From NCBI GenBank assembly GCA_019359235.1, contig JAHHHT010000012.1:3648-67647 (forward strand): DNA of 64,000 nt, read 5' to 3'. Shown in pieces: positions 6,804 to 30,192 of this stretch (its first letter is position 1; each line of letters opens with the position of its first letter). The notes under the pieces were generated by a model. It saw only the letters and a list, made by a program, of their open reading frames with translations, did not search any database and had not been told where the DNA came from. This DNA comes from Oscillatoria princeps RMCB-10 (GTDB taxonomy: Bacteria; Cyanobacteriota; Cyanobacteriia; Cyanobacteriales; Oscillatoriaceae). A program made the translations under genes and the position numbers.

Positions 6804-9800
6804 ATGAGCTCCCATCTGGATCAAATTCAAGCACTCATCTCCGACATTGACGGGGCGCTAGCGGCACCAGCGCCCCGCCTGCCTTGGATGGGAGATACTG
6901 CCAGCTTTCGCCGGCTCCTGGAGCGAATTCGCAACTATCTCGTCTGGCTGGAGGGCCAGGTGAGTGCGGGCGAGTCTTTTCTGCCACCGGCAGCGAATCA
7001 AAATCTGCGCGGCGCTGCCATCGAGCCGGTGCCGGCTGTCCCCTCCCCTGAAACGCCGGCTTGGGCCCAGCAGCTGCTGCAAGCGGTTGTGGGAGAGATG
7101 GCATCTGTGCGCTCTACCCTCGCGCAGCCAATACAGGCAGACTTGGCCGCCCTGCAACAGCAGCGGGACGCTCTGTTCAAAGAAATTCGCCAGTTGGAGG
7201 CTCAGCGACAGCACCAATACTCTCTGGTTCAGCAACAGGCTTCCCAGCAGCAAATTATTTCGGAATTTTTGCAGGCGTTAATGGGGCGCTTGCAGGAAAG
7301 CTTGACGGAGCAAGTGGCCCAGACGTTAGGCCATCTAGAGCAGCAATTTTTAACCGGATATGAATCGCCGCCGGTCGGGCAATCCCCGCTACAAGGGGCT
7401 GGCTACTCAACCTCAACAAGTCCGCTGCAGTTGCAAGGATCCAGCCGCCAAATGCACCCGCAAGAGCGCTTGGAGCGGATGCGGCTGCTGCAGCAAAAGA
7501 GCGACGAGCTGTTACTGACGCTGGACTCTACGCTCAAGGTGATGTTTGAAGCGCTGCTGCGGAATATTCACAGCTATGAGAAGTCTTTGGCCAGAGGGCT
7601 TGACAAAAGTTTCAATCCTGTTCCCGGAATTCAGCTAACAGAAATATCACCGCCGCCGCCACCTGAATTTATTATACCCGAAACCGACCGCAGCGAGTCC
7701 CGAAAGAACCTGCCACCGGCGGCGGCTGGCCCAACGCCAGACCCGGGCAGCTCGGTGAAATCCAACCGCCGCGCCGGTGCCGCTAAACCCAAACAGCCGA
7801 CTTCCGGGCTGCCCGCCCCACAGAGCAAACGGCAGCAGCCAGCCGCCGGCAACCGCACCGGAGCCACCGACACGGGGGCTTCCGACCGGCAAACTCCGGA
7901 AACACTTAACAGAGAACCTTCAGCGACAGAGAGTCCGCCGCAGCAAGAGGCGGCCCAAAACTTGCCGGGTTTGGGCCAAGCTGAGGCGGCGGAGATCGAA
8001 ACGCTGCTCAATCTGGACGTGGGGGCAACTGCTGCGCCAGCCCCATCAGAGCTAGCACCGGATGAGGATCTCAATGCCGTTCTTCAGCTGCTCAATGCCG
8101 AGCGCAATCCCTCTTCCGAGCGGGCTGAAGGAGGCGGCATTCCAGCCCGGTTGAGTGCCGGTGTTGCCTCTGCAGACTTCTCGCCGGATATCCACGAGCT
8201 TTATGCCAGTCTGTTTGGGGCTGAGGACGCCCCCGCCACTGCAGCGCCGGCAGCAGAGACTGCCACCGGCTCGCCGGTTCTGTTTGAAGAGGCACTGTTT
8301 GAGGGATTCCCGGATACGGCGGCTGTTGCCCCACCGGCACCCCAGCCAGAAAAATCTGTGACGTCTGTGACCCAGTCGCTCGAAGAGTTCTTATTTGATG
8401 GCGATTCAGCCGAAAGCACCCGCACGGGCTCCCTGAGGTTGGCAGATTTATTCGGGGAAACACCAGCAGAGCGGGAGAAGAATAGCACAAAAGAGTCAAT
8501 TAGTCAAGCGCCCAGTGCTGTAAGGGACCGGCCAGCCGCAAGCAGCACCGGCAGCGAGGATGACATATCCCTGAGCGAGCTTTTCGGAGAGCCAGAGGCA
8601 GGAGAAAGCAATCAGCAATCTGCCTTGAACCCTCAGCCTGGCGCGGCGCTCCACAAGTATGGGGCAAAGGGCTCTGAGGAGCAAAACCAGACCGCTGCCG
8701 ATCTCGCTTGGGAGACAGACAGCTATATCCCGGCATCGCCGGATGAGGATTTACTGCCAAACGTTGAAGAGGAGGGGGAGAGCCGGCTGCCAGCCTTCTG
8801 GATAGATGACAGCACCCTCGAGCAGCTTCGGGAGGATCTTTCGTTTGAACCCCGCTCCCAGGATTCAGCTGGCAGAACTGTTCGCCCCCCGCTTCCTGAA
8901 TTGATCGCACAGTCAGCCCCAACCGAGTCGGGCGCAGACGATTGGCTGGCTGAGCTGTCTGGAGAAAGCTCCCAGCTGCCGGACGCTACGCCAGAGCCAG
9001 AACCGCCGCCAGTTTTAGGGGACACGCCTTCGATGACGCTGGAAGAAGCGTTTGCCAGCTTAACGGAGGCAACGGCTCAGCCCTCACCGGCAGCAGTTAG
9101 CCCTAGCGATAGGGAATTAGCGATTGGCGATAGGGAATTAGCGGCGCGGAAGGCGCAGCGCGACCCAGGGCCAGCGCAACGGCCAGCCAGGATTTACAGC
9201 TCTTGGGAAGAGGCGGACTCACCAGATGTTTTGGATTGGAACGCTGTGGCGGCAACCCCTGAGCCCGACAGCGAGGTGTCGGCGCTCGACGATCTGTTTG
9301 CTAGCTTGACGGGAGAAGAGCCGGCACCATCTGAATTTGAGGGGCTGGACTTATTCGAGCCGTCTGGGGGAACGCTGGATGCGGACGCCACCGAGGAGCT
9401 GCGGGCAGCGGATCTCGACGATCTGTTTGCGGGCTTTGGTGAGGAAACCCCGACGCTCGCTGAGCCGTGGGCGCAACAGCCCTTAAAACCCCCCGCCCCC
9501 GACTCGGGGACAGAGGAAAAAAAAAAGGATTTAGAGGCGGCTGAGCTGCTGGCTTTTCTTGAGTCCGCCACAGCCGCACCGGCTTTGGGGAGGGAGGAAA
9601 GAACAGGGCCCGCAAAAGAGGGCTTTGGGCAGAAAGCCGCTGCCGCTGCCGGTGGAAAAACTGCGGGACAGGCATCTTCGCTGTCCGGTGCGCCATCCCC
9701 CGTTTTGGGGGAGAGCGAGTTCGGCCTTGCCCTCGACGGGGCTCAATCTCAGGGGAAGAGCGGCAGCGGTTCCCCACAAGTGGTGCCCTCTGAGGGCGAG

Positions 9801-11681
9801 CCGTCAGAAAAGGTCTGGTATTTGGGAATTGACTTTGGCACCACCGGCATTTCGGCAGCTCTGCTGAATCGCCAAACTTTGCAGGTGTATCCTATCTACT
9901 GGGTGGAAGGGGAACAGCTATCGGGTCAGGTGCGTTCCGCCGGCTTGAGTCATGCGCCAGACTTATTAATTTCTGGAAGCGCAACGCACCCTGCTAAAGA
10001 GCGCTTGTTTCGCTTGCCCTGTGTGGCTTATCTGTCAGCGGCTGGCGGTGAGTGGTCAGTGGCAGACGTGGGGCGGGCCACCGGCACCCCGCCTCTGGAG
10101 AAACCAGGGCTGTTGCTGCAGAATTTTAAGCCGTATTTGAAGGTGGCTATTGCCGGCACTTCCGCCCGGTCGGAGGCTGAGGCTGACCAGGGGCCTAACC
10201 CGTGGGAGCCTTGGGTGCAGTGGTCAGACCGGCACCTGATTCCTGCCGGTTGCCTGACAGACGCGGCGCGGGCGCTGCTGGCCACCCTCAAGCCGGTGAG
10301 CTCGGTTGTGGGGGGGAGTGGCGAGGAGCGCCAATCCCGAATTATCTCTGGGGCTGCGGGTCTCGAACCGGCAGCTTTCGGCAATGCGATGCGGAGTTTG
10401 GCCGGTGCTTGCTTGAGCTGCAACGTCTCAAGGCCTGACAGCTACAGTTTTAATCTGCGAGAAGCGGTTCTGGCGGCTGGGTTGGTGCGGCGTGCGGAGC
10501 AAATTGTCTTTGTTGAGGATGCGCTGGCGACGCTGCTGTCGGTTCTGGGAGGAGCTTCTGGGGAAAGTGTGACGGTTTCGGGCAGCTCTTCGCAAAAACT
10601 CAACCTTTTTAACGCTGACTGGCTGGGGGTGACTTTGGCTGTCAGTGCCGGTGCGACTGTGACGGAACTTTGTTTGGTGAATTTGCCAGACAACCTGCAA
10701 AACTTAACCCACGAGTCTTTCCGCTCTCACAGTTTTCCTTATGCCGGTGATGCGATGGATTTGGATATTATCTGCCAGCTGCTTTTGGGGGATAAAGGCA
10801 AAAGTGCGCTCCCCCTAGGCGCTCTGCCGGCAGAAGAGTTGCCGCGACCGGGGGAACCCGAGTTGCAGAAGCGCTATCGATTGCAGCAGCTGTTGCGCAG
10901 CTCGTCTCAGGGACAAGCGCTTCTGGAAGCGGCGAAGCACTTGAAGTTAATTCTGCAGCACCAAGAGCGCTTTACTTTGGAACTGGGGAGCCACAGGTGG
11001 GTTTGCACTCGCAGGGATCTGGAAAGCCGGGTGTTTGTGCCGTTCGTGCAGCGCTTGAATCGCGAGCTGAACGCTCTGCTCAGCCACACCGGCGTGCCGG
11101 TGCAAGCTATCGACCAAGCTTTGTGTACGGGTGGGACTGCTTCTCTGCCGGCTATCGCCCGCTGGTTGCGGCAAAAACTCCCCAACGCCACGATTATTCA
11201 GGACACTTACCCCAGCGAGCGCCCGCCGGCTTGCAGTCGTGTGGCCTACGGTCTGGCCACGCTTCCCCTGCACCCCCAAGTTTTCGATGTCAAAAGCCTG
11301 CACTACAGCGACTGCTTTCTGCTGCTGGAGCTGCTGCGGTGCTGTCCCGACCGACCGCTGTCTGTGGCGGAGATTGTGCGATTGCTGGAACTCAGGGGCA
11401 TTAATACCGGCATTTGCTTCGAGCGCATCCTGGCTGTGCTGGAAGGGGAGCTCCCCGCCTGGATTCGCCCAGATCCCTGTGAGGCTTTGCTGCTGACTCC
11501 TGAGTTCCGGGAAAATGCTGACAGTCTCGGACTGCATGCGGCTCCCCTTTTCTACAAGCAAGACAATAACACTTACCGCCCCAATGTCGAGCAGTGTCAG
11601 CGGCTGCGCCAGTACTTGAGCCAGCTGATGGCGGGGACTTACCAAAAATCAGACGAGCCGTTTACGGTTGATTTGGTGTGA
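6804..11681 (+). CDS. giant multidomain protein: N-terminal coiled coil, ~700-aa acidic/Pro-rich low-complexity region with repeated (D/E)LF(G/A) motifs, C-terminal Hsp70/actin-like ATPase domain
   Basis: 1625-aa ORF. Hsp70 signatures LGIDFGTTGIS (nt ~9820), CTGGTASLPAI and VAYGLATLPL near the C-terminus. Linker motifs ADLFGE, SELFGE, DDLFASLTGEE, LDLFEPSG, DDLFAGFGEE, EALFEGF. Confidence 0.75.
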   Translation: MSSHLDQIQALISDIDGALAAPAPRLPWMGDTASFRRLLERIRNYLVWLEGQVSAGESFLPPAANQNLRGAAIEPVPAVPSPETPAWAQQLLQAVVGEMASVRSTLAQPIQADLAALQQQRDALFKEIRQLEAQRQHQYSLVQQQASQQQIISEFLQALMGRLQESLTEQVAQTLGHLEQQFLTGYESPPVGQSPLQGAGYSTSTSPLQLQGSSRQMHPQERLERMRLLQQKSDELLLTLDSTLKVMFEALLRNIHSYEKSLARGLDKSFNPVPGIQLTEISPPPPPEFIIPETDRSESRKNLPPAAAGPTPDPGSSVKSNRRAGAAKPKQPTSGLPAPQSKRQQPAAGNRTGATDTGASDRQTPETLNREPSATESPPQQEAAQNLPGLGQAEAAEIETLLNLDVGATAAPAPSELAPDEDLNAVLQLLNAERNPSSERAEGGGIPARLSAGVASADFSPDIHELYASLFGAEDAPATAAPAAETATGSPVLFEEALFEGFPDTAAVAPPAPQPEKSVTSVTQSLEEFLFDGDSAESTRTGSLRLADLFGETPAEREKNSTKESISQAPSAVRDRPAASSTGSEDDISLSELFGEPEAGESNQQSALNPQPGAALHKYGAKGSEEQNQTAADLAWETDSYIPASPDEDLLPNVEEEGESRLPAFWIDDSTLEQLREDLSFEPRSQDSAGRTVRPPLPELIAQSAPTESGADDWLAELSGESSQLPDATPEPEPPPVLGDTPSMTLEEAFASLTEATAQPSPAAVSPSDRELAIGDRELAARKAQRDPGPAQRPARIYSSWEEADSPDVLDWNAVAATPEPDSEVSALDDLFASLTGEEPAPSEFEGLDLFEPSGGTLDADATEELRAADLDDLFAGFGEETPTLAEPWAQQPLKPPAPDSGTEEKKKDLEAAELLAFLESATAAPALGREERTGPAKEGFGQKAAAAAGGKTAGQASSLSGAPSPVLGESEFGLALDGAQSQGKSGSGSPQVVPSEGEPSEKVWYLGIDFGTTGISAALLNRQTLQVYPIYWVEGEQLSGQVRSAGLSHAPDLLISGSATHPAKERLFRLPCVAYLSAAGGEWSVADVGRATGTPPLEKPGLLLQNFKPYLKVAIAGTSARSEAEADQGPNPWEPWVQWSDRHLIPAGCLTDAARALLATLKPVSSVVGGSGEERQSRIISGAAGLEPAAFGNAMRSLAGACLSCNVSRPDSYSFNLREAVLAAGLVRRAEQIVFVEDALATLLSVLGGASGESVTVSGSSSQKLNLFNADWLGVTLAVSAGATVTELCLVNLPDNLQNLTHESFRSHSFPYAGDAMDLDIICQLLLGDKGKSALPLGALPAEELPRPGEPELQKRYRLQQLLRSSSQGQALLEAAKHLKLILQHQERFTLELGSHRWVCTRRDLESRVFVPFVQRLNRELNALLSHTGVPVQAIDQALCTGGTASLPAIARWLRQKLPNATIIQDTYPSERPPACSRVAYGLATLPLHPQVFDVKSLHYSDCFLLLELLRCCPDRPLSVAEIVRLLELRGINTGICFERILAVLEGELPAWIRPDPCEALLLTPEFRENADSLGLHAAPLFYKQDNNTYRPNVEQCQRLRQYLSQLMAGTYQKSDEPFTVDLV

Positions 11682-16338: not shown

Positions 16339-16676
16339 GTGCCGAGTGCGTCACTCGCGGAAACCGCTAGAGATCCTGGCGATTGAAATCGCGGCTATAC
16401 AAACAAAGTCCGCCTGCGCGGACTTTTTGAAAGCCGGTGCTACCCGTAGGGTGCGTTCCCAGAAGGAACGCACCCTCCCAGCTATATGCAGGGGCGGAGT
16501 AACTTTTTTTAAAGACAGGTTTTTTAGGGGTTGCCTTAGGAGCATGCCAATTTGGGATTGTCGCATAAAACGTGCCGGTCACACGGACTTTCCCGGTGCG
16601 ACGACGGTGCCGGTGTGCGCAGGGTGCCGGTCAAAGGAGGGTGCCGGTGGGGCTAAAGCCCAACTACAAACCGGTC

Positions 16677-17048: not shown

Positions 17049-17879
17049 ATGTACATAGACCATAAAATCGGTGACTTAGTTGTTCAGCAACGCCAAAAAG
17101 ATGGTTACATCAACGCAAGTAAGCTAACTAAGGCTTATGAGCGAAAAACCGGAACTCGAAAGAATCCTAAACATTGGTTTGAGAACGATAGAACTTATAA
17201 ATATTATGAGCTTTTATCGGACAAAACAGGGCTGGAGGTCTCTGACATCGTACAAAAAAAAGGAAGCGGTAACAAGCAAGAGACTTGGATTCATCCAAAA
17301 TTAGCTATCTCTTTTGCTATGTGGCTATCGCCCGAATTTGAGATGATGGTCTCTGAGTGGGTCGAGGAATGGCTAACAACTGGCAAAACTCCGGTCTATG
17401 AGACTGTTCAGTTACGTCCTTACCAGCGAGTTTGGTATCAGCGATTAGCCCTGTTTGAGCAAAAGACCAAGTTGCCCCGAGGTACATGGTGTATTTTTGA
17501 GGAGATAGGGAAGCTGATGAGAGATTTAGAAGCTAAAGGTGTTCTGCTGCACGACAGAGCTACTATAGATATTTCGGTAGGCAGAACGTGGTGTCATTGG
17601 CTGAGAGAAAAAGGCCGTAATACAGATGAGTTTCAACAGTACCCCCATCACTATCCCGACAGCAGGGGAGAGCAACCTGCAAACGTTTACCCTTTCGAGT
17701 TGCTAGGGGAGTTTCATCAGTGGCTGGAAGATACGTACATTCCTGACAAGTTCCCGGAATATGTAAGAAACTATTGTACGCCAGAAGAATGCAAATTAAT
17801 CTCAGAAGCTATCGGATATGAGGTTAAGCCTATTCAAATAAGGCTTAAACCAAATAAGTCTCAGTCCGCTTCTGACTAA
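17049..17879 (+). CDS. KilA-N domain protein (phage-derived DNA-binding domain) with unknown C-terminal domain
   Basis: N-terminus DGYINASKLTKAYERKTG...KHWFEN...TWIHPKLAISFAMWLSPEF is a KilA-N/APSES-type fold. Gene is markedly AT-richer than its surroundings. Confidence 0.75.
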   Translation: MYIDHKIGDLVVQQRQKDGYINASKLTKAYERKTGTRKNPKHWFENDRTYKYYELLSDKTGLEVSDIVQKKGSGNKQETWIHPKLAISFAMWLSPEFEMMVSEWVEEWLTTGKTPVYETVQLRPYQRVWYQRLALFEQKTKLPRGTWCIFEEIGKLMRDLEAKGVLLHDRATIDISVGRTWCHWLREKGRNTDEFQQYPHHYPDSRGEQPANVYPFELLGEFHQWLEDTYIPDKFPEYVRNYCTPEECKLISEAIGYEVKPIQIRLKPNKSQSASD

Positions 17880-18331: not shown

Positions 18332-21007
18332 TCAAACGATCGTGCCGTCGGAAAAGAATACCTGGAACTCCTCAAACGACAGGTCAATAAACCCATCGTT
18401 ATTCCTGTCCCTGGAACCTGCCGGCGCATCTACGCCCCAGGGATTAAACACGACAATGCGCTCAGCGTCCGAGTCAGTCACATAGACCTGGGTAATTGCG
18501 TAAGGGTGATTGGCAACTATCAAGCCGGCTGAATTAGCCGCACTTTCTCTGTCAGTAGAGGCCGCTACAAACCGGCCCGTATCAAAAGCTTGGTTTATCC
18601 GCTCAAACGTGAAGTCCGCAAAGGTGCCGGTGGCGCGGCTGTCTCCATTCCTAAACACATCCGCCTTGCGGGAAGTCAGCTGGGAGATCGCCTCAGAAAC
18701 ATCACCCCCTCGGCTAATCAATTCATAGCCATTTGTCGCGTCCCCTTCTTGCCACTGCTGCCACACTGCGTAAGCTTTTTCCAGCAGCGTTATCCAAATC
18801 GGTCGGTTATTCGGGTTGCTGGGAACCTCCAGATTTTTGTCCTTAGCGCCGTATATCTCGCCGGCGTACACTGCCACATCCTGATTCACTGTCACCCACT
18901 GCTCAGCGCCGTTTTCGTAGAAGCGCACGCCGTAGGTTTGGTCGCCGTTATCAAAGATTGCACCGGCAATCGCCTCACTCGATTTTCCTGGATTGTTCCC
19001 CGCCACCGGCCTGAACGTTGCGCCAGCAGCCGCAATCAAAAAGCTGTCCGCAAACTGGTTTTGATTCACCTGCGAAATTTGCGGCACATTTTCGCTGCCA
19101 TACAGCTGTCCTGTTAGCCGCTGAAGTTCCAAGTTGAAAACCCTGGAATCCCCACTGCCGTCTGTCGCCGTGTAGGGAGGATTGTAAGGCTGAACAATCC
19201 CGCGAAACCAGCGGTTAACAATCTCCTTAAACGGAGCGGTTTGTACGGCTCCTAGACTGTTCGCTATCTTCCCGGCATCCTGAACAACCTGTTCCGCAAT
19301 AAACGCTACATAGGGCGGTAAATCAAACTGCTTCTGATTCCCCACTAAGGCTTTTAAATCCTGCAACTCAGCTTCCGTGACGATATCATCGTCTGTCGCT
19401 CTGTCAAATATCTGCAACATGTCGTTGCGGCTTAATTGCCCATCCGCAGACAGGGTGCGGGCGTCTGTTCGCACTTGCTCATCTTCCAAGCTGTTCAAGT
19501 CGAGGGTTGGGTCTGACAGCGGTGTCGAAACAAGACGGGCGTTCAAAGTGTAACTTCCTGTGGCGTCTTCATTAAAGCTCGTCACGCGCACGATGTACTC
19601 AGTTCCCGCATCTGCAGTGAAGGTCACGGCAGAGTTGAGGTCGCCCCGCGCCCGACCAAAATCTTTGCTTTCCGCAACCGGCATGCCGGTGAGGGCGTCT
19701 ATCACTTGCAGATAAGTTTCAAACTGCCCAGAATTGGCGCTGATTTGCACAATTTGATCCGCAGAAACGCCCGTCAGCCGGTAGTCATCGCTGTAGGTTC
19801 CGGGACGAGTGGGGTTATCCAAGTCCGTGGTGGCGAGGGAGTTGCTGCGGGAGGAGGAGACGGCGAGAGAAGCAACGATGGGGCTGGACGCATCTGCAGT
19901 CAGGGTGAAATTGCCGGTGCCGGCAAGCTGTTTGGGATCGCTCGTCACGCGAATTGCATATCGCACGCCTTGCTGCGCGGTAAAATTGAGCGCGGAATTG
20001 CTGTCGCTGCCGGTGGGGATGGCTTCTCCTGTGAGGGCGTCCACCAGTTCCAGGCGGGGGCTGAATTCGGTGGAGGTGAGGGTGACTTCTACCTGCTGAC
20101 CGGCAGTTACCTCTCGCAGGATGTAGTCTTTGGCGAAAGTCCCCTCTTGCAGGGGGTTAACTTTGTCTTGAAACGACAAATTGCCAATAATCGTGTCATC
20201 GCCACGGATGAAGTCAGCCTCTTCAAAGCCGGTTAAGAAGCTGCCGTTTTTTAGGGTGCGGCGCGGTTCCCTGATTCCACTGGTAATATAGTGTTTGTAG
20301 GCTCCCTCGAAGTTGAAACCGGCTGCCTGCAAGTCTGGGCTTGACTCTAAGTACGCTCTGACATTAAAATTCTCTGTGGAGGCGCGTCCTTCGTTAATGC
20401 CGGTGCTTTCAAAGTGTTCTAGCAGCTGCCGGTTGCTGAGGCGGGCAGACCGCAAGTCCGGATTGGCATTCCGGTAAAACTGAACATCAAACGCTGGGGA
20501 AAAGGGGCGACTTTCCGCCAGGCCGAAGTTTTCCAGGTGATCTAAAAGCTGCCGTCCTTTCAAACCGGCAGCGAACAAGTCTGGATTGTTTGCGAGATAG
20601 TAATTGGGGTCAAAGAAGGGGGATAAGTTGCGCTGTTCCGCTAAGCCGGATAGCAGCAGGTGGTCGTAGGCTTGCTCCAGGTTGCCCTTAAAGGCTTGCT
20701 GCAAGTCGGGGTTGGCTTCTAAATAATATTCTAAATCGATAAAGGGTGAAAATTTGCGCCCCTCCTGCAAGCCAAAGTTTTGCAAGTGCTCGAAGAGCTG
20801 TTTGTTGGTGGTCAAGCCGGCTGCTTTCAGGTCGGGGTTGGCTTGCCGGTAGAAGTTGAGGTTGATGAGGGGGGAGAAGGGACGCCCTTCGTTGAGGCCA
20901 AACTGCTGGAAGTGGAGCCGGAGCTGTTGGTCAGCTGTCAGACCGGCTGCTGCTAAGTCTGGGTTGACTTGCCGGTAGTAATTGACATCGAATAAGTCTT
21001 TGGCCAC
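18332..21007 (-). CDS. multidomain calpain-like (peptidase C2-fold) protein: 6-7 N-terminal ~38-aa repeats, two pre-peptidase C-terminal (PPC) domains, C-terminal calpain-like domain with Ser replacing the catalytic Cys
   Basis: Calpain core alignment: FADSFLIAAAGA (calpain GDCWLLAA), IWITLLEKAYAVW (FWSALLEKAYAK), LIVANHPYAIT (LVKGHAYSVT), IVVFNPWG (IRMRNPWG). N-terminal repeats NYY(R/L)xANPDL..AGL...LxHxxxFGLxEGR. Confidence 0.8.
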   Translation of the reverse strand: MAKDLFDVNYYRQVNPDLAAAGLTADQQLRLHFQQFGLNEGRPFSPLINLNFYRQANPDLKAAGLTTNKQLFEHLQNFGLQEGRKFSPFIDLEYYLEANPDLQQAFKGNLEQAYDHLLLSGLAEQRNLSPFFDPNYYLANNPDLFAAGLKGRQLLDHLENFGLAESRPFSPAFDVQFYRNANPDLRSARLSNRQLLEHFESTGINEGRASTENFNVRAYLESSPDLQAAGFNFEGAYKHYITSGIREPRRTLKNGSFLTGFEEADFIRGDDTIIGNLSFQDKVNPLQEGTFAKDYILREVTAGQQVEVTLTSTEFSPRLELVDALTGEAIPTGSDSNSALNFTAQQGVRYAIRVTSDPKQLAGTGNFTLTADASSPIVASLAVSSSRSNSLATTDLDNPTRPGTYSDDYRLTGVSADQIVQISANSGQFETYLQVIDALTGMPVAESKDFGRARGDLNSAVTFTADAGTEYIVRVTSFNEDATGSYTLNARLVSTPLSDPTLDLNSLEDEQVRTDARTLSADGQLSRNDMLQIFDRATDDDIVTEAELQDLKALVGNQKQFDLPPYVAFIAEQVVQDAGKIANSLGAVQTAPFKEIVNRWFRGIVQPYNPPYTATDGSGDSRVFNLELQRLTGQLYGSENVPQISQVNQNQFADSFLIAAAGATFRPVAGNNPGKSSEAIAGAIFDNGDQTYGVRFYENGAEQWVTVNQDVAVYAGEIYGAKDKNLEVPSNPNNRPIWITLLEKAYAVWQQWQEGDATNGYELISRGGDVSEAISQLTSRKADVFRNGDSRATGTFADFTFERINQAFDTGRFVAASTDRESAANSAGLIVANHPYAITQVYVTDSDAERIVVFNPWGVDAPAGSRDRNNDGFIDLSFEEFQVFFSDGTIV

Positions 21008-21020
21008 AGGTTGTTGCTGC

Positions 21021-21103
21021 TAGATTAGGGAGTTATGTAATATTATTTTAACGTGCCGGTGGTGAGTCGTAGGGTGCGTTACGGAGTAACGCACCCTACA
21101 GCT
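21021..21103. repeat. ~85-bp direct repeat, copy 1 (tagattagggagttatgtaatattattttaacgtgccggtggtgagtcGTAGGGTGCGTTAcggagTAACGCACCCTACagct)
   Basis: Second copy at 21223-21306. Both end in the GTAGGGTGCGTT-loop-AACGCACCCTAC hairpin family (also at 16446-16478, 33357-33390, 39942-39976, 53172-53210). Confidence 0.8.
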
Positions 21104-21222
21104 AACTTTTTCACAGTTTAAGCTGTTAGGCTAATAATGCTGCTTGCCCCTTGAAAGTCGGCGGAGCGGACAGCTCGGCGTTCCCAGGCGGTAGGGGCGG
21201 GTCCCCGTGCCCGCCCCGGAAC

Positions 21223-21306
21223 TAGATTAGGGAGTTATGTAATATTATTTTAACGTGCCGGTGGTGAGTCGTAGGGTGCGTTACTCCGTAACGCACCCTA
21301 CAGCTG
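21223..21306. repeat. ~85-bp direct repeat, copy 2
   Basis: Near-identical to 21021-21103. Confidence 0.8.
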
Positions 21307-21395
21307 CAACGTCACATAGACGGAATATCAAGAAAGCAGGTTTCTTTAAGATTCGCTTTCTTTGGGTGCGTGCCGGTTTAGCACGCACCTGAATT

Positions 21396-23440: not shown

Positions 23441-26400
23441 ATGTATGTGTACGCTACGCCAGAGTGCAAACGGAAGGCAAAGCAGCACAATGTAGAGGCA
23501 GTGGTTGAAAGACTTTGTGAGGAGGAGAACCCCCTGTCGCGCTTCAGGAGGTTTTCTCATGTCTACTTAAAAAAGACAGTGGACAGAAATCTCAGACTGA
23601 TTGCCAAGCTTGTCGAAACCTCGGACAGGGAGCCGGTGCTGTGCTTGCTCGATATTCTCAAACGCGGGGATGCGGACTATGAAATAGACTTCTGCTTTGA
23701 ACCAGAAGTCTTTGGCGAGAAGCGTTTAGATCCTTTGCTGGATATTGAACAGCTGCAGGAGTGGCTGAATGCACAGAAAAGGTTGCAAGAGCGTTCGGAG
23801 AGCAAAGCCAAGCCGGTTCCAGTGGAGTTACTTCCTTGGCTAGAGCTGCCCAAGTGGGGGATGGACGCCCAAGAACTTGTGATCTGTGAGAGCGAGGAAT
23901 GGGTTCGCCGGTTTAAGCTGAACACAATCCAACGGGACTGGCACTTCTACTGGGAAATAGTTTTCAATCTAGTTGAAAATTGCAGCAGTGCGCTCCAGGG
24001 ATGGGCGGAGGAAGAAACGGAGTGGCGGGGAGTGAAGCTGTGCGGAAATCCCGACGGGCGGTATGTGCTGTTCAGCCGGCTGGAAACGGCGGAAACAGGG
24101 GACACAGCGGCGCGGCAAGTCATCTTCCTGCTGGCTCCATTTAATGGCAAACCCGCGCCAAAAGAAATAGAGGAAGTCGGGCGGGAAACCAATCTTTTCA
24201 AATTAGGGAGCAGCCAGCTGTCGGACGTGCCGGCGCTGAAAGACTTAGCCCCCTACGCCCGACGTTCCTATCCGGGCTATATCCTGTACGATAAGGACAG
24301 CTGGAGCGAAATCGAGTGCGATGACGAGGCAAATATAGCGCTCTCAGCTGAAGAGGAGCAAATTCTCCAGTCCGTGTCAGCGCCGGGAAACAAATCCCTG
24401 CCAATCTTTATTAATGGACGTGCCGGCAGCGGCAAGTCTACCATTCTATTTTACCTGTTTGCGGACTACTGCGCTCGCCACCAGGAGTATTGCCAGCAGC
24501 AGGGAAAGAGCTTCGGTGAGAAACCCCACCCCCTGTTCCTCACTTACAGCAAAAGCCTGCTAGAGGTCGCTCAGAAGGTGGTGCGCCGGATTGTCGCGTC
24601 CCATCACAAGTTTGTAGCGAAAAGGACTGAAGAGATCCAGAAACTGTCCGCTGATGACTTGCAGCCACTTTTCAAGACATTTCGGGATTTTATCCTAGAC
24701 CTGCTTCCGCCCGACGAGCGCGACCGCTTCCAGCCAGAGAAGGAAATTTCATTCTATCACTTCCGGGAGCGATACAAGACGTGCAGGCTGCCAGAAGCTA
24801 AAGATAAAGATTGCCCTCCCGAACTCTGCTGGCACATCATTAAAACCTTCATCAAAGGGTATGACCTCGACGAGGAAGTAGACCCGGAATACTACCGGGC
24901 GTTTGTGCCCAGAAGAGAGCGCACTGTAGAGCCGGCTCTGTTCACAAAGATTTACGAAAGCATTTGGGAGAGGTGGTACAAAAGGCTGACAGCGGCGGAT
25001 GGCGAAGGCTACTGGGACGATCAGGACTTGGTGAGAAAAGTTCTGGAATCCGGGAGTTCCTCTCACGACTACACCGCCATCTTCTGCGACGAATCTCAGG
25101 ACTTCACGAGTTTGGAGCTCAAGCTAATCCGACAGCTGTCTGTTTTCTCGCAGTATGACTTTGGATACCAGCCGGTGCCGAGTTTGCCCTTTGCATTTGC
25201 CGGCGATCCGTTCCAAACCTTAAACCCGACGGGATTCCGCTGGGAAAGAGTTGGGTCTTCCTTCTACAGCGAAGTGCTCGCCAACCCGATCGGTGGCAAA
25301 AAGCTGGCTCTCGAAATGAACTTCCAGGAGCTAGAATTAAACTACCGCTCCAGTCACCCCATCGTTCGGCTCACCAATTTGATACAGCTGTGGCGGTGCG
25401 TTCGCTTTGGGCTAGACGACCTCAAACCCCAGAAACCCTGGCAGAACAAAGACAGTTCCCTGGAGCCGCACAAGTTCATCTTTGGCGAAAACCTCTCCCT
25501 GGAAAAGCTGAAACCCCACATCCAAAAAAAGCCCATCTTTATTATACCTTGTGAGGCCGGCGGGGAAATCGACTACATCCGCAATGATCAGATCCTGCGC
25601 GAGATATTCCCGGACGTGACAGAGGAGAATCCGCCTGAGAACCTGTGCAGCGCTATCAAAGCAAAGGGACTGGAGTTTCCCCTGGTTATCCTGTACAAGT
25701 TTGGCGACGAGCTGCACAAAAGATACAGCCACAGGGAGGTTTGGGAGCGTGCCGGCGATCGCTCAGACCATTTAGTGGGGCTGGAATACTTTTTCAACAA
25801 GCTGTACGTCGCAGCCAGCCGCGCTATGTCAGACTTGTTTGTGATAGACTCAAAAGAAGGAGATCGCATACTTTGGCAGTACGCCGGCGACTCCCAGATA
25901 GAGCGATTACTGCAGCTGGCGGGCGGTGGCGCACGCTGGAAAGACCTTGTGGGAACCCTCGCCCTTGGCGAAGATATAGCAGCGCTCGATAAAGACAACC
26001 GGCAGTCTCAAGCCGAGCAGTTGAAAAAGCGGGGGATGCAGGAAAAAGACCCGCAAGACTTGCGAGCCGCCGCTAAATTTTACAGAGCGCTTGGGTGCGC
26101 AGAAGAAGCCAAACGCTGCTCGGCGTTCGCCTTGAAATTCGACCGGCAATACAGGGAAGCCGGTCAGCTTTTCCTGGAACTCGGCGAAAAAGAGCCGGCT
26201 TGGGAATGCTTCTGGGATGGACTGTGCTGGCAAAATTTGCTAGAATGGTATTCGGTATCTCCTGAACGGAAGAGAGAGTACCGCCCCCTCGTCGAGTTCA
26301 TGGCTGAAAACCCGAAAACCCAACAGGTAATTAACGATTTTACGGAATTCCTGGAAACCCTCGAACTCGAACAGCTCAGCGATAATCGCATGCGCCAGCA

Positions 26401-27598
26401 ATGGCAGAAAGCTGTGCGAGAGTATGCCGGTCTAATCCAAGGTTTGACTATCTTCCAGCAAGTTCACCGGCCAAACTGGCAGCGGTTTGGGGAAATTGTG
26501 GAAAAGTTGGCAGAGGCTCGCTATAATGGAATGCGCGAGCTAGCGGGAGACTGTTTCTTCCGCACGGGCACCCGCGAGAACCTGGAACGCGCTGTGGAGT
26601 GCTGGGAGGCTTGCGGCGCAACTCAAAAGCGCGAGTATTACTTGGCTAAAGCTGAGTTAACTAAAATTCCAGAGCGCCTGGAATATTTGGAAAAGGCAAA
26701 GGACTTCCAGCGCCTGCTGGGAGAGTGGGAGCGTGCCGGCAAACCAGTCACCCCGCCGTGGTCAAAATATGTTGAGCCGGCTCTGGACAGCCAGAAGCGG
26801 TACGCGGATCTGGCTGAGTGTTTAATTCGCGGGACTCAGTGGCTAAAAGCCATAGAAGTGTTAGAAAAACACCCGGAAACCGCAAGTTTGGGTTTTTATG
26901 TCGTGCGGGAACTGGCTCGCTCAAACCTAGCGGCACAGAATTTTCTGGAGGATATGTGCCGGCGCTACGAGAGATTCATCAGCACCCATGTCCTCTCAAA
27001 TCCCAACTGGCTGCAGCAGGTTTCGCCGCAGGAAGTGGGAGCCGCACTGGAGAAAACGGGCGAGCTTGTAGCCACCTTAAGGTTTTACGAGGGATTCACT
27101 GACAGCCGCGACCAGATCCTGAAAAATTTGGCGCGTGAGCGATGGATAAAGAACAAGAAAAAGCAGGCGGATTACCACCGGCATAAAGGAGAAACGAACA
27201 GAGCGGAAGAAATTCGGGCGGAAATTTTACTCAAGGCAAATGAGTGGCGAATCTCGACCGCCCGACTGATTTGCCGGCACGCCGGTGCGCCGGTGGGAGA
27301 ATTTTTACTGGATGGCAGCAGCAAGTACAGAGTTGGGCGCTTCAGTTCCGATGCCGGTCGCGACGATATCATCGACCTGCAAAAATTCCCGCAAGGCGAG
27401 TACATCTCCCGCAGTCACGCTGAAATTTATCAAGAGGGCGGGGAGTGGAAAGTCTTAGATACCGGCTCGCGCGCAGGGGTGTTCATTCAGCGTGCCGGTC
27501 AGGAGCGCCGGCACGCTTTAGTTGATGTGCCGGAAATTTTAAAAGCCGGTGATGAGGTAGTCTTTGCAACTATTCCCTTCCTGTTTCAAACACCTTGA
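23441..27598 (+). CDS. large UvrD/PcrA-like SF1 helicase-family ATPase with unknown ~300-aa N-terminal domain, helical (TPR-like) region and C-terminal FHA domain
   Basis: SF1 motifs: I INGRAGSGKSTIL (nt ~24415), II FCDESQDFT, IV LNYRSSHPIV, VI AKGLEFPLVIL. C-terminus YRVGRFSSDAGRDDIIDL...ISRSHAEIYQEGGEWKVLDTGSRAGVFI is an FHA fold. Confidence 0.8.
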   Translation: MYVYATPECKRKAKQHNVEAVVERLCEEENPLSRFRRFSHVYLKKTVDRNLRLIAKLVETSDREPVLCLLDILKRGDADYEIDFCFEPEVFGEKRLDPLLDIEQLQEWLNAQKRLQERSESKAKPVPVELLPWLELPKWGMDAQELVICESEEWVRRFKLNTIQRDWHFYWEIVFNLVENCSSALQGWAEEETEWRGVKLCGNPDGRYVLFSRLETAETGDTAARQVIFLLAPFNGKPAPKEIEEVGRETNLFKLGSSQLSDVPALKDLAPYARRSYPGYILYDKDSWSEIECDDEANIALSAEEEQILQSVSAPGNKSLPIFINGRAGSGKSTILFYLFADYCARHQEYCQQQGKSFGEKPHPLFLTYSKSLLEVAQKVVRRIVASHHKFVAKRTEEIQKLSADDLQPLFKTFRDFILDLLPPDERDRFQPEKEISFYHFRERYKTCRLPEAKDKDCPPELCWHIIKTFIKGYDLDEEVDPEYYRAFVPRRERTVEPALFTKIYESIWERWYKRLTAADGEGYWDDQDLVRKVLESGSSSHDYTAIFCDESQDFTSLELKLIRQLSVFSQYDFGYQPVPSLPFAFAGDPFQTLNPTGFRWERVGSSFYSEVLANPIGGKKLALEMNFQELELNYRSSHPIVRLTNLIQLWRCVRFGLDDLKPQKPWQNKDSSLEPHKFIFGENLSLEKLKPHIQKKPIFIIPCEAGGEIDYIRNDQILREIFPDVTEENPPENLCSAIKAKGLEFPLVILYKFGDELHKRYSHREVWERAGDRSDHLVGLEYFFNKLYVAASRAMSDLFVIDSKEGDRILWQYAGDSQIERLLQLAGGGARWKDLVGTLALGEDIAALDKDNRQSQAEQLKKRGMQEKDPQDLRAAAKFYRALGCAEEAKRCSAFALKFDRQYREAGQLFLELGEKEPAWECFWDGLCWQNLLEWYSVSPERKREYRPLVEFMAENPKTQQVINDFTEFLETLELEQLSDNRMRQQWQKAVREYAGLIQGLTIFQQVHRPNWQRFGEIVEKLAEARYNGMRELAGDCFFRTGTRENLERAVECWEACGATQKREYYLAKAELTKIPERLEYLEKAKDFQRLLGEWERAGKPVTPPWSKYVEPALDSQKRYADLAECLIRGTQWLKAIEVLEKHPETASLGFYVVRELARSNLAAQNFLEDMCRRYERFISTHVLSNPNWLQQVSPQEVGAALEKTGELVATLRFYEGFTDSRDQILKNLARERWIKNKKKQADYHRHKGETNRAEEIRAEILLKANEWRISTARLICRHAGAPVGEFLLDGSSKYRVGRFSSDAGRDDIIDLQKFPQGEYISRSHAEIYQEGGEWKVLDTGSRAGVFIQRAGQERRHALVDVPEILKAGDEVVFATIPFLFQTP

Positions 27599-27858: not shown

Positions 27859-30192
27859 GTGCTAAAAAATGGGAACGAAACGTTTCCCCCACCAACCAGC
27901 CAGCCGCCAAGTAAAACCACCCAGTTCAGCCCAATGACGCCCCTAGATTACACCTCAGAAACCCTCCTCGAACAACTTCCCCAGCTGAGTGACGAGCAGC
28001 TGAAACGGGAGTATTTGAATTCCCTGAAATGGACAGAACCCCTAGCGCAGATGTTAGCGCGTGCCGGTTCGGAAGAGCAAGCGCTGCGAGCGGTAAAACT
28101 AGCCCTAGAAGTGGACTGGCAACTGGGCGCAAAGCTAGCAGGAGCGGTCAAACCGGCATTTCAGGCGCAAACTGTAGAGCTAGTTGCTAATTTAGACATT
28201 CCCCAACACCTGAAGCTTAAACTGTTAGGCATCACCCGCTCTGACAGCGCCATCTCACCCGTGGCGCAAGCTTTGAGCGCGGAAGACTACGATATTCGCT
28301 CTAGCGCTGTCGAGGCATTAGGGGAAATCGGCTCAGAGGCGGCGGCGAGCCGGCTGCTGCAAGTTTTGGACTCGGAAAACTCCGGAATTCGCCAGAGCGC
28401 TTTCGAGGCGCTAGGGCAAATTGCCTCGCCAGCAACAGTACCGCTATTGCTGCTCGCCCTCAACGACGAAGACGTAGCAATCAGCGCACTGCTGGCGCTG
28501 GTGAAAATCAGCCCTGAAGCCGGCGCAACAGGATTGCGGCAAGTTTTAAACCATCAAACCGAGGCGGTTCGCCAAGAGGCGAAAAATCTCTTAACCGGCG
28601 GCGAAGAAATCAGCTCTCAGGCGTGGGTGGCGACGCTCGTGCGAGCCCTGAAAGATAGCGATTCAGAAGTTCGCATTTCTGCGGCAGTGGGGCTGCACGA
28701 AATCGGCTACACCTTGCGGAGAACCGGCGACTCGTCTGCAGTGGAACCCCTGATTCAAACTGTGCGCGACGAAAACCCAGAAGTTCGCCGGTGGGCGGCT
28801 GCAGCTTTAGGGCGAATTGGCACCGAAACAGCAGTGCCGGCGCTCATAGAAGCTCTCAGCGATGAAAACCCCAAAGTTCGCAGCTCCGCTGCTAGTGCGC
28901 TGTACGAAACCGGCTCAAGAGCCGCCGCGCCGGCGCTCACCCTAGCCCTGAACGATACCGAGCGTTTGGTTCGCGCTTCCGCTGCAGAAGCCCTCGGCAA
29001 AATTGGCTCCGAATCAGCCGTGCCCGATCTAGTGCGAGCTTTAAACGATGAAAACCATACCGTTCGCGAGAGCGCAGCTTCTGGGCTGGGAAAAATCGCC
29101 ACACAAGCTGCTGTCGAGGCGCTCATTCAAGCCCTCAGCGATCCAACCCCTCACGTTCGCGCCACCGCTGCAGTAGCCTTAGGAGAAACCGGAGCGGAAG
29201 CTGCAGTGCCGGCACTCTTGGAAGCCCTGAAAGACAGAGACTCTCAAGTTCGCGACAGCGCCGCAGTGGCATTAGGAAATATCGGCTCCTCAGAAGCCGT
29301 GCCGGCGCTCGTGCAAACCTTACTCGATGACATCGCTCTCGACTCTGGCTGCGATTTTAAAGTTCGTTCCGAAGCCGCCAAAGCCTTAGGAAAAATCGGC
29401 TCGGAAACCGCTGTGGCAGAACTCGTGCAAGCCTTGAACAACCCAGACGCTTTAGTTCGCGAACTCGCTGCCTATGCTCTGAGAAAAACTGCCACACTGG
29501 TAGCTGCACCGGCACTCCTGCAAGCGCTGAAAGATGAAGACTACCACGTTCGCGCCAGCGCTGCAGTAGCCTTAGGGAATATCGGCTCCGAAACCGCAGT
29601 GCCGGCGCTCATTGAAGCATTCAGCGACGAAAAATGGATGGTTCGTGAAGACGCAGCCGAAGCCGTGGGTAAAATCGGCGCTAAATCCGCAGTGCCGGCA
29701 CTGCAGCAACTTTTGAATGAGGACTCCCCCGAACTTCGCCGCAAGGCGGCTGAAGCCTTAGGGAAAATCGGTTCCGAAACTGCACTTCCCGCCCTGCTTG
29801 AAGCTTTGAGCGACGAACACTATAAGGTGCGTCATGAAGCTGCCGAAGCCTTACAGAAAATCGGCTCCTCTGCAGCTGTAGAAAAACTCCTGCACGCTTT
29901 GACCCACCACAATTCCAGGGTTCGCTGGAAAGCTGCCGAAGCCTTAGGCGAAATTAACTCGATCGCCGCCGTGCCGGCACTGCTGAAAGCCCTCAGCGAT
30001 GACGACTCTGACGTTTGCCGCAGTGCAGCCAAAGCCTTAGGTAAAATCGGCAGCCCTGAAGCTCTGCCGAGTCTGTCCCCACTCCTGCGCAGTGAGAACC
30101 GATTTGTAATTTCCGCCGCGCTCGATGCAATCTCTGCGATTCAAGAGCGTTGCGGTTATTACAATAGCGCCCTGGTAAGCTCGGATTTATGA
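27859..30192 (+). CDS. HEAT-repeat protein (PBS-lyase HEAT-like repeats, ~18 units)
   Basis: Iterated ~31-aa units LxALxDEdxxVRxxAAxALGxIGSExAVPAL throughout; unique ~150-aa N-terminal region. Confidence 0.8.
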   Translation: MLKNGNETFPPPTSQPPSKTTQFSPMTPLDYTSETLLEQLPQLSDEQLKREYLNSLKWTEPLAQMLARAGSEEQALRAVKLALEVDWQLGAKLAGAVKPAFQAQTVELVANLDIPQHLKLKLLGITRSDSAISPVAQALSAEDYDIRSSAVEALGEIGSEAAASRLLQVLDSENSGIRQSAFEALGQIASPATVPLLLLALNDEDVAISALLALVKISPEAGATGLRQVLNHQTEAVRQEAKNLLTGGEEISSQAWVATLVRALKDSDSEVRISAAVGLHEIGYTLRRTGDSSAVEPLIQTVRDENPEVRRWAAAALGRIGTETAVPALIEALSDENPKVRSSAASALYETGSRAAAPALTLALNDTERLVRASAAEALGKIGSESAVPDLVRALNDENHTVRESAASGLGKIATQAAVEALIQALSDPTPHVRATAAVALGETGAEAAVPALLEALKDRDSQVRDSAAVALGNIGSSEAVPALVQTLLDDIALDSGCDFKVRSEAAKALGKIGSETAVAELVQALNNPDALVRELAAYALRKTATLVAAPALLQALKDEDYHVRASAAVALGNIGSETAVPALIEAFSDEKWMVREDAAEAVGKIGAKSAVPALQQLLNEDSPELRRKAAEALGKIGSETALPALLEALSDEHYKVRHEAAEALQKIGSSAAVEKLLHALTHHNSRVRWKAAEALGEINSIAAVPALLKALSDDDSDVCRSAAKALGKIGSPEALPSLSPLLRSENRFVISAALDAISAIQERCGYYNSALVSSDL

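Follow-up and report, generated by a model that had tools for sequence, protein, structure and literature searches.

Non-peptidase homologues made up 29 of the 267 members of peptidase family C2 (the calpains) in the survey by Rawlings (2015), which also described the N-terminal PPC domains of cyanobacterial calpains as unusual (PMC4631099). Family members without the catalytic cysteine, namely calpamodulin/calpain-6, androglobin, Drosophila calpain C and C. elegans clp-3, are presumed to have binding or structural roles (PMC4631099). Here we analysed a 64,000-nucleotide stretch of the cyanobacterium Oscillatoria princeps RMCB-10 (contig JAHHHT010000012.1; hereafter the window), on which one gene codes for a calpain-fold protein with serine at the position of the catalytic cysteine. 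We consider it a new case, a natural and bacterial cysteine-to-serine C2 homologue with an otherwise intact active site, for which non-peptidase status is favoured with moderate confidence. Natural exchanges of cysteine for serine on papain-like folds are rare tests of nucleophile change and of the origin of pseudoenzymes, and this one is informative in that the nucleophile alone has changed and close cysteine-bearing relatives exist for comparison.

Identification of a calpain core with serine at the cysteine position

The gene, the calpain core and the active-site residues were located as follows.

18332..21007, minus strand: whole gene, coding for an 891-residue, cysteine-free multidomain protein (list of open reading frames and translation)
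18335..19087, minus strand: calpain (peptidase C2) protease-core fold, residues 641-891 (Pfam PF00648 and model)
19043..19045, minus strand: Ser655, codon AGC, at the position of the catalytic cysteine (m-calpain Cys105; alignments)
19061..19063, minus strand: Gln649, the oxyanion-hole glutamine six residues ahead of the nucleophile, kept (alignments)
18506..18508, minus strand: His834, the catalytic histidine (m-calpain His262), kept (alignments)
18443..18445, minus strand: Asn855, the catalytic asparagine (m-calpain Asn286), followed by Pro856-Trp857-Gly858, kept (alignments)

The interval is filled by exactly one open reading frame (ORF), which is 891 codons long and begins with GTG, and its translation contains no cysteine. 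From the N- to the C-terminus the protein consists of six repeats, two PPC-like domains, a helical pre-domain and the calpain (C2) core. Its public record (MBW4494515.1) is that of a hypothetical protein from the O. princeps RMCB-10 metagenome-assembled genome (MAG). The 92% identical ortholog of Oscillatoria sp. PCC 10802 / Kamptonema formosum (WP_017716928.1) is called 'C2 family cysteine protease' in RefSeq, a misnomer for a protein with zero cysteine.

A Pfam search of the C-terminal domain, which had been proposed as a check on its assignment to the calpains, returned PF00648 above the gathering score (35.9 bits compared to a cut-off of 23.8; E = 5.5e-9; residues 690-859). The alignment covers profile positions 90-244 and stops short of the cysteine region, and the equivalence of Ser655 was tested separately. 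In an alignment of 10 sequences the nucleophile motif was GDC[FAYW] in all nine detectable homologs and ADSF in the window protein, with the glutamine, histidine, asparagine and tryptophan invariant; an alignment of 89 sequences agreed, the histidine and asparagine being invariant there. The family profile matched human m-calpain (1kfu; E = 2.2e-29) with QGalGDC on QGALGDC (Cys105), HaY on GHAY (His262) and NPWG on NPWG (Asn286). An AlphaFold2 model built from the 89-sequence alignment reached a predicted local distance difference test (pLDDT) of 89.3 and a predicted template modelling score of 0.90, and superseded an earlier, poor model from the 10-sequence alignment (pLDDT 64, falling to less than 50 at the nucleophile). 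The best Foldseek matches of the 89-sequence model were 39 calpain chains, with E-values down to 1.6e-14; the PDB also includes a crystallised calpain-3 core with the C129S substitution (6bdt).

The C-terminal domain of the window protein is a calpain-fold homolog with serine at the cysteine position. The original prediction had read serine in place of the nucleophilic cysteine with the histidine and asparagine conserved, and this was borne out, with Ser655 in the Cys105 column. Where an active C2 cysteine peptidase has the catalytic cysteine of QGxxGDC, Ser655 was found; the remaining active-site residues of such a peptidase (His834, Asn855, the oxyanion Gln649 and Trp857 of the NPW motif) were all present. 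The acidic third residue (Asp/Glu) expected of a serine hydrolase was absent, with Asn855 standing beside the serine and histidine in all orthologs.

Conservation of the serine among orthologs

Six distinct full-length alleles with a mutual identity of 85-100% all carried the serine as codon AGC within the motif DSFLIAA. Besides the window, they came from the isolate genome of PCC 10802, two MAGs (Prado101 and an uncultured Oscillatoria), SRA-derived contigs and a JGI metagenome contig. The allele of the uncultured Oscillatoria (L008) reads GDS at the nucleophile motif, indicating that the other alleles gained their alanine at position -2 after the cysteine-to-serine change.

Misalignment and a sequencing error at the serine codon had been named beforehand as the ways in which the prediction could fail, and both were excluded. 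A sequencing error was rejected on the identical AGC in the isolate genome, the MAGs, the SRA assemblies and the metagenome contig. A misalignment that hides the true cysteine nearby was rejected on the count of zero cysteine in 891 residues and on the profile alignment, which sets the motif in register with Cys105. The probability that the serine is an artefact of either kind is, in our estimate, practically nil.

Nucleophile residues across the calpain family

Searching 1.84 billion representative proteins exhaustively with a profile gave 21,863 members of the family at E <= 1e-3, and the nucleophile column was read in the best 150 of these representatives together with the first nine homologs. 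The column was covered by 176 aligned domain segments, and 166 of them had cysteine there. Among the best 150 representatives, only the Oscillatoria serine lineage joined serine with intact glutamine, histidine, asparagine and tryptophan. Serine was also found in the first domain of P0094, where the histidine is changed to glutamine, the tryptophan to serine and the glutamine to proline, and in the first domain of P0097, which is truncated before the histidine. The first domain of P0096 has glutamate at the nucleophile, P0164 has glycine with the histidine changed to glutamine, and the giant multi-domain proteins P0095 and P0100 have a single non-cysteine segment each.

In P0094, P0096 and P0097 the calpain domains stand in tandem, the first degenerate or truncated and the second intact, so that a pairing of a dead with a live domain recurs in the family. 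Such fusions would fit a window protein that lacks catalysis of its own and serves an active protease as partner or regulator, for example as a decoy, as a substrate trap resembling an inhibitor or as the scaffold of a cysteine-bearing paralog; this would be a sub-case of a pseudoprotease. However, a tblastn search of the 64-kb window detected no other calpain-like ORF, and no calpain-like gene is adjacent in PCC 10802 or in locus L005; we judge this role to be quite unlikely.

The next relatives beyond the orthologs were at most 42% identical and all had cysteine. Searches of protein, genome and metagenome collections turned up no homolog in the range from 42% to 85% identity. The serine lineage therefore appears as a narrow Oscillatoria clade at the tip of a long branch.

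Selection on the gene

Nei-Gojobori ratios of non-synonymous to synonymous change (dN/dS) among the orthologs were 0.18-0.32 overall and 0.20-0.28 in the calpain core, the core being no higher than the repeats, the PPC-like domains or the pre-domain. Variation among the six orthologs affected 8 of the 75 family-conserved columns (>=80%) compared to 91 of the 321 other columns, an approximately threefold reduction (Fisher P = 0.001). The gene is under purifying selection, core included, with the fold and most ancestral constraints kept, and the protection of the conserved columns together with the low dN/dS indicates that it is not decaying. A recent inactivating mutation, after which the gene would be turning into a pseudogene with a core of no retained function, might be suspected from the phylogenetic narrowness of the serine lineage and its extra deviations at conserved columns. 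The selection tests contradict it (core dN/dS 0.2-0.3; conserved columns protected, P = 0.001), as does the 891-codon frame, which is intact in six orthologs differing at up to 15% of residues, and we regard decay as very improbable.

Private deviations at conserved columns numbered 16 in the serine lineage compared to 3-7 in the cysteine-bearing sisters P0001 and P0002. Four of the 16 fall in the nucleophile motif (D646Q, G653A, C655S and L661A), and two of these sites, 653 and 661, continue to vary from ortholog to ortholog. This pattern looks like local relaxation around a nucleophile that would no longer be important, though on modest evidence. Ranking all sequences by deviation placed the query third of 89, a rank confounded by phylogeny, with the cysteine-bearing P0007 and P0008 deviating more; the comparison with the sisters and the test within the lineage were used instead.

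Pseudoprotease or serine hydrolase

The homology of the core, the equivalence of its residues, the serine in six orthologs, the purifying selection and the depletion of cysteine in the class of repeat-bearing proteins (below) are established. As to function, the original prediction had offered either a serine-nucleophile variant or a pseudoprotease or adaptor, an alternative that the analysis supported. We incline to the second, and the C-terminal domain is probably, though by no means surely, a calpain-fold pseudoprotease that would bind peptides without cleaving them. The reading is favoured because Ser-His-Asn is a weak triad and because engineered cysteine-to-serine calpain and the naturally serine-bearing SERA5 are both inactive; the substitutions in the nucleophile motif shift the balance the same way.

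Ser-His-Asn is a very poor triad for amide hydrolysis, and trypsin loses about 10^4-fold activity with the D102N substitution. The C105S form of calpain-8 was found to be 'proteolytically inactive, but structurally intact' (PMC2912385). In P. falciparum SERA5, which has a papain fold with a natural Ser596, activity was undetectable, whereas the S596C form was active; the S596A form had no phenotype, and the protein is an essential non-enzymatic peptide binder (PMC4671257).

A pseudoprotease of this kind would still bind a peptide or protein ligand through its kept substrate cleft and active-site glutamine, histidine, asparagine and tryptophan, and peptide-bond cleavage would be nil or negligible with Ser655 replacing the thiol nucleophile. 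The six NPDL-type repeats, a module shared with other proteins, would probably target or bind cell-envelope polymers, and the two PPC-like domains may serve as spacers or binders. The whole protein would then probably work at the cell envelope or beyond it, as a binder or adaptor.

The other half of the alternative, a calpain-fold hydrolase that is active through Ser-His-Asn with Ser655 as nucleophile and His834 as general base, is in our view possible but doubtful. It could cleave proteins, although esterase or transferase activity on an activated substrate is more plausible, and it would have evolved to avoid an oxidation-prone thiol in a cysteine-free extracellular protein. Such an enzyme would be consistent with the retention of Gln649, His834, Asn855 and Trp857 along the long branch and in six of six orthologs, and with purifying selection on the core that is at least as strong as on the other domains and still constrains the family-conserved columns. 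Silicatein provides a case of Ser-His-Asn on a papain fold with non-protease chemistry, but what its triad does is a matter of dispute (PMC6233156). Several points argue against a hydrolase: the inactivity of engineered cysteine-to-serine calpain (PMC2912385), the inactivity of natural SERA5 Ser596 even though it binds peptides (PMC4671257), the third residue being asparagine and not aspartate, and the lack of any visible compensating change, with positions 653 and 661 of the nucleophile motif relaxed and polymorphic.

The pseudoprotease reading has evidence of its own to face. The joint retention of the glutamine, histidine, asparagine and tryptophan is equally expected of an active enzyme, and the other non-cysteine domains of the family have also lost the histidine, glutamine or tryptophan or end before the histidine, a point that speaks for the hydrolase. 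The cysteine-to-serine change falls somewhere on the long branch between 42% and 85% identity, and the link to a purge of cysteine concerns one fusion event only. With no signal peptide seen by eye, an extracellular or envelope location can only be inferred, and in a Brevundimonas protein related repeats precede RgpF glycosyltransferase-type domains. Finally, the gene neighbourhood points to no functional or binding partner.

The N-terminal repeat module

The N-terminal part of the protein is made up of repeats.

20249..20998, minus strand: six tandem repeats of 41-42 residues, residues 4-253 (alignment of units and 80 homologs)

The repeats are anchored by N-P-D-L at residues 15, 57, 99, 141, 182 and 223 and have the consensus FDxxxY[LR]xxNPDLxAAG...H[FL]...G[LI]xEGRxFSP, with Y, D, H, G, E and R invariant in an alignment of 23 units. 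The original prediction had recognised tandem repeats at the N-terminus, which are indeed present, and had put them at six to seven units of about 38 residues, which we correct to six of 41-42. Its inability to match them with a known domain agrees with our searches: no curated model exists in Pfam, NCBIfam or the PDB sequences, with noise-level matches only in Pfam-A and NCBIfam and none among the PDB sequences with the repeat profile at E <= 10. A literature search for an 'NPDL' repeat in cyanobacteria returned nothing. The repeat is not rare, being shared by 80 proteins. A single-unit profile run against a set of 5.8 billion proteins gave 2 matches from 105 candidates, a profile of 42 residues being too short for the word-indexed tool.

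The 80 homologous proteins retrieved with the repeat region (P0014-P0093) are mostly cyanobacterial and fused to many different domains, and they include a repeat-bearing paralog in the same genome as the window protein (P0048; KME26_26535). In 54 of the 80 the repeats start a few residues after the initiator methionine (MxxNLFDxNFYRxANPDL), without a signal peptide by eye. The longest ORF for the window protein begins MAKDLFDVNYY and leads straight into repeat 1, again with no signal peptide by eye at the N-terminus. The C-terminal cargo of repeat-headed proteins comprises PPC, CAP, DUF4394, matrixin, P-domain and T9SS sorting domains. In non-cyanobacterial homologs the repeats are C-terminal to evident signal peptides (by eye), as in a Clostridium NlpC/P60 peptidase, and in one such protein RTX repeats precede the module.

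In Brevundimonas diminuta 3F5N (L009, 2713-5796) a protein of 1027 residues carries many related repeats (FDxxWYxxxxPDV...HYLxxGxxEGR) before two RgpF (rhamnan synthesis protein F) domains. By this protein the repeat occurs beyond secreted proteins, and the idea of a strictly extracellular module is weakened. The theme shared by the repeat-bearing proteins is the biology of cell-envelope polymers, and the repeat may plausibly be a glycan- or envelope-binding or targeting module.

Depletion of cysteine in repeat-headed proteins

Only 8 cysteines were counted in the 20,554 residues of the proteins with an N-terminal repeat module, and 49 of these 54 proteins were free of cysteine. Neighbouring genes in the window have 1.25% cysteine, a rate at which the probability of finding none in 891 residues is 1.4e-5. 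The cyanobacterial repeat-headed class is about 30-fold depleted in cysteine. Among calpain relatives the nucleophile is the sole cysteine in 37 of 88, and the nearest cysteine-bearing ones lack the repeat module.

Depletion across the class may be the reason for the loss of the catalytic cysteine. The residue would probably have been lost when the calpain module joined a cysteine-intolerant class of proteins, the last cysteine of the recruited module being swapped for its closest isostere, serine, a course of events that is coherent but unproven. We consider it unlikely that a calpain-fold enzyme with a natural serine nucleophile is seen here for the first time, in the form of a Ser-His-Asn hydrolase that evolved since the cyanobacterial carriers of the NPDL repeat use an export route or milieu that excludes cysteine. 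If this were so, the repeat module would mark an undescribed class of signal-peptide-independent targeting or secretion. Dozens of nearly cysteine-free cyanobacterial proteins without signal peptides combine an uncurated repeat of about 42 residues with cargo of extracellular type, and explaining this class, be it by targeting, secretion route or envelope binding, may outweigh the single serine in importance.

PPC-like domains and helical pre-domain

Three further domains lie between the repeats and the core.

19883..20212, minus strand: PPC-like domain 1, residues 266-375 (38% identity to domain 2; PF04151, 12.9 bits)
19520..19858, minus strand: PPC-like domain 2, residues 384-496 (PF04151, 22.7 bits, E = 1.8e-4)
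19088..19519, minus strand: helical pre-domain, residues 497-640 (conserved across the bacterial calpain subfamily; no Pfam model)

Domains 1 and 2 are two copies of one beta-rich module, similar to each other at E = 2e-18. The PPC domains of the original prediction correspond to these two copies; both PF04151 scores fall under the gathering cut-off of 25.9, and we call them PPC-like only. A precomputed match to PF04151 exists for P0001, the nearest homolog.

The pre-domain sits outside the region alignable to eukaryotic calpain cores, and its motif DGxLSRxDM..F....G.V...E..DL is kept across the bacterial calpain subfamily. Within it we observed an EF-hand-like loop (DGxLSRxDM) and an E..DL..L motif, conserved in thousands of bacterial calpain homologs (family alignment A2). 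The pre-domain might be a prodomain, bind Ca or cover the cleft.

Upstream spacer and gene neighbourhood

The spacer ahead of the gene was compared among the orthologs.

21008..21395, minus strand: upstream spacer with ortholog-conserved sequence, including a -10-like TAAAAT/AATAAT stretch (ortholog comparison)

The spacer is nearly identical among the orthologs, but in the window strain about 200 bp of inserted or duplicated sequence interrupt it. The extra sequence consists of an element of about 125 bp (core 21129-21159) and a duplication of about 80 bp that contains the palindrome GTGCGTTAC-NNN-GTAACGCAC, found at 21074-21094 and 21276-21296. The element of about 125 bp also occurs in the spacer of Oscillatoria sp. 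Prado101, at a different point, and a small element of this kind in the promoter region may therefore be mobile. Scans for consensus promoters and terminators gave nothing usable upstream on the strand of the gene.

The neighbours of the gene code for SurE, an NAD-dependent epimerase, an FHA/STAND NTPase and a KilA-N protein, and only the upstream side of the locus is syntenic, with SurE and the epimerase upstream on the same strand in all strains compared. On the downstream side the window strain has the KilA-N gene and PCC 10802 an SLH-domain gene. The KilA-N gene (17049-17879, plus strand) is directly downstream and convergent and does not occupy that position in PCC 10802 or L005; its placement is apparently a strain-specific insertion or rearrangement. 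The NTPase (23441-27598, plus strand) is a protein of 1385 residues with AAA_16/STAND-type NTPase and UvrD_C-like matches and a C-terminal FHA domain, and adjoins SurE in the orthologous loci.

Elsewhere in the window, a 1625-residue ORF (6804-11681, plus strand) lies in a region of higher G+C content (about 0.60) and has no Pfam match at E <= 1e-3. ARAGORN called a tRNA-Arg(tct) at 16412-16492 and a tRNA-Ser(cga) at 28352-28439, both on the minus strand. An Rfam scan of the window at gathering thresholds detected no tRNA and no other RNA family, the tRNA-Ser(cga) call falls within a HEAT-repeat ORF (27859-30192), and both calls are probably false positives.

Comparison with known systems

The window protein shares its core fold and motifs with the bacterial C2 homologues (PF00648), among them the cyanobacterial proteins that combine PPC with C2, such as Alr0369 of Nostoc PCC 7120, and like the cyanobacterial calpains of this type it carries PPC-like domains N-terminal to the core (PMC4631099). 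Domain III and the EF-hand domain found C-terminally in classical calpains are absent, as they are in the bacterial homologues. The pre-domain and core are also those of its nearest relatives, P0001 and P0002, of which P0001 matches PPC as well. The protein differs from the bacterial homologues in its serine nucleophile position, in being wholly free of cysteine and in its N-terminus of six repeats, which was not seen in the sampled calpain relatives.

Outside family C2, SERA5 has its Ser596 at the cysteine position, but belongs to family C1 of a eukaryotic parasite and has other accessory domains, so that the likeness is one of mechanism only. Silicatein, which is cathepsin-L-like, resembles the window protein in a natural Ser-His-Asn on a papain fold (Ser26-His165-Asn185), which in silicatein goes with non-proteolytic chemistry. 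It differs as a family C1 protein of sponges that acts in silica deposition and whose triad has a contested role (PMC6233156), and nothing ties the window protein to silica.

Within family C2, calpain-8 C105S and calpain-3 C129S (6bdt) share the substitution, its structural position and the fold with the window protein. Both were made in the laboratory from eukaryotic enzymes that Ca2+ regulates, whereas the change in the window protein is natural, fixed in its lineage and under purifying selection. Calpain-6, androglobin, calpain C and clp-3 have also replaced the histidine (PMC4631099), whereas the window protein has changed the nucleophile only.

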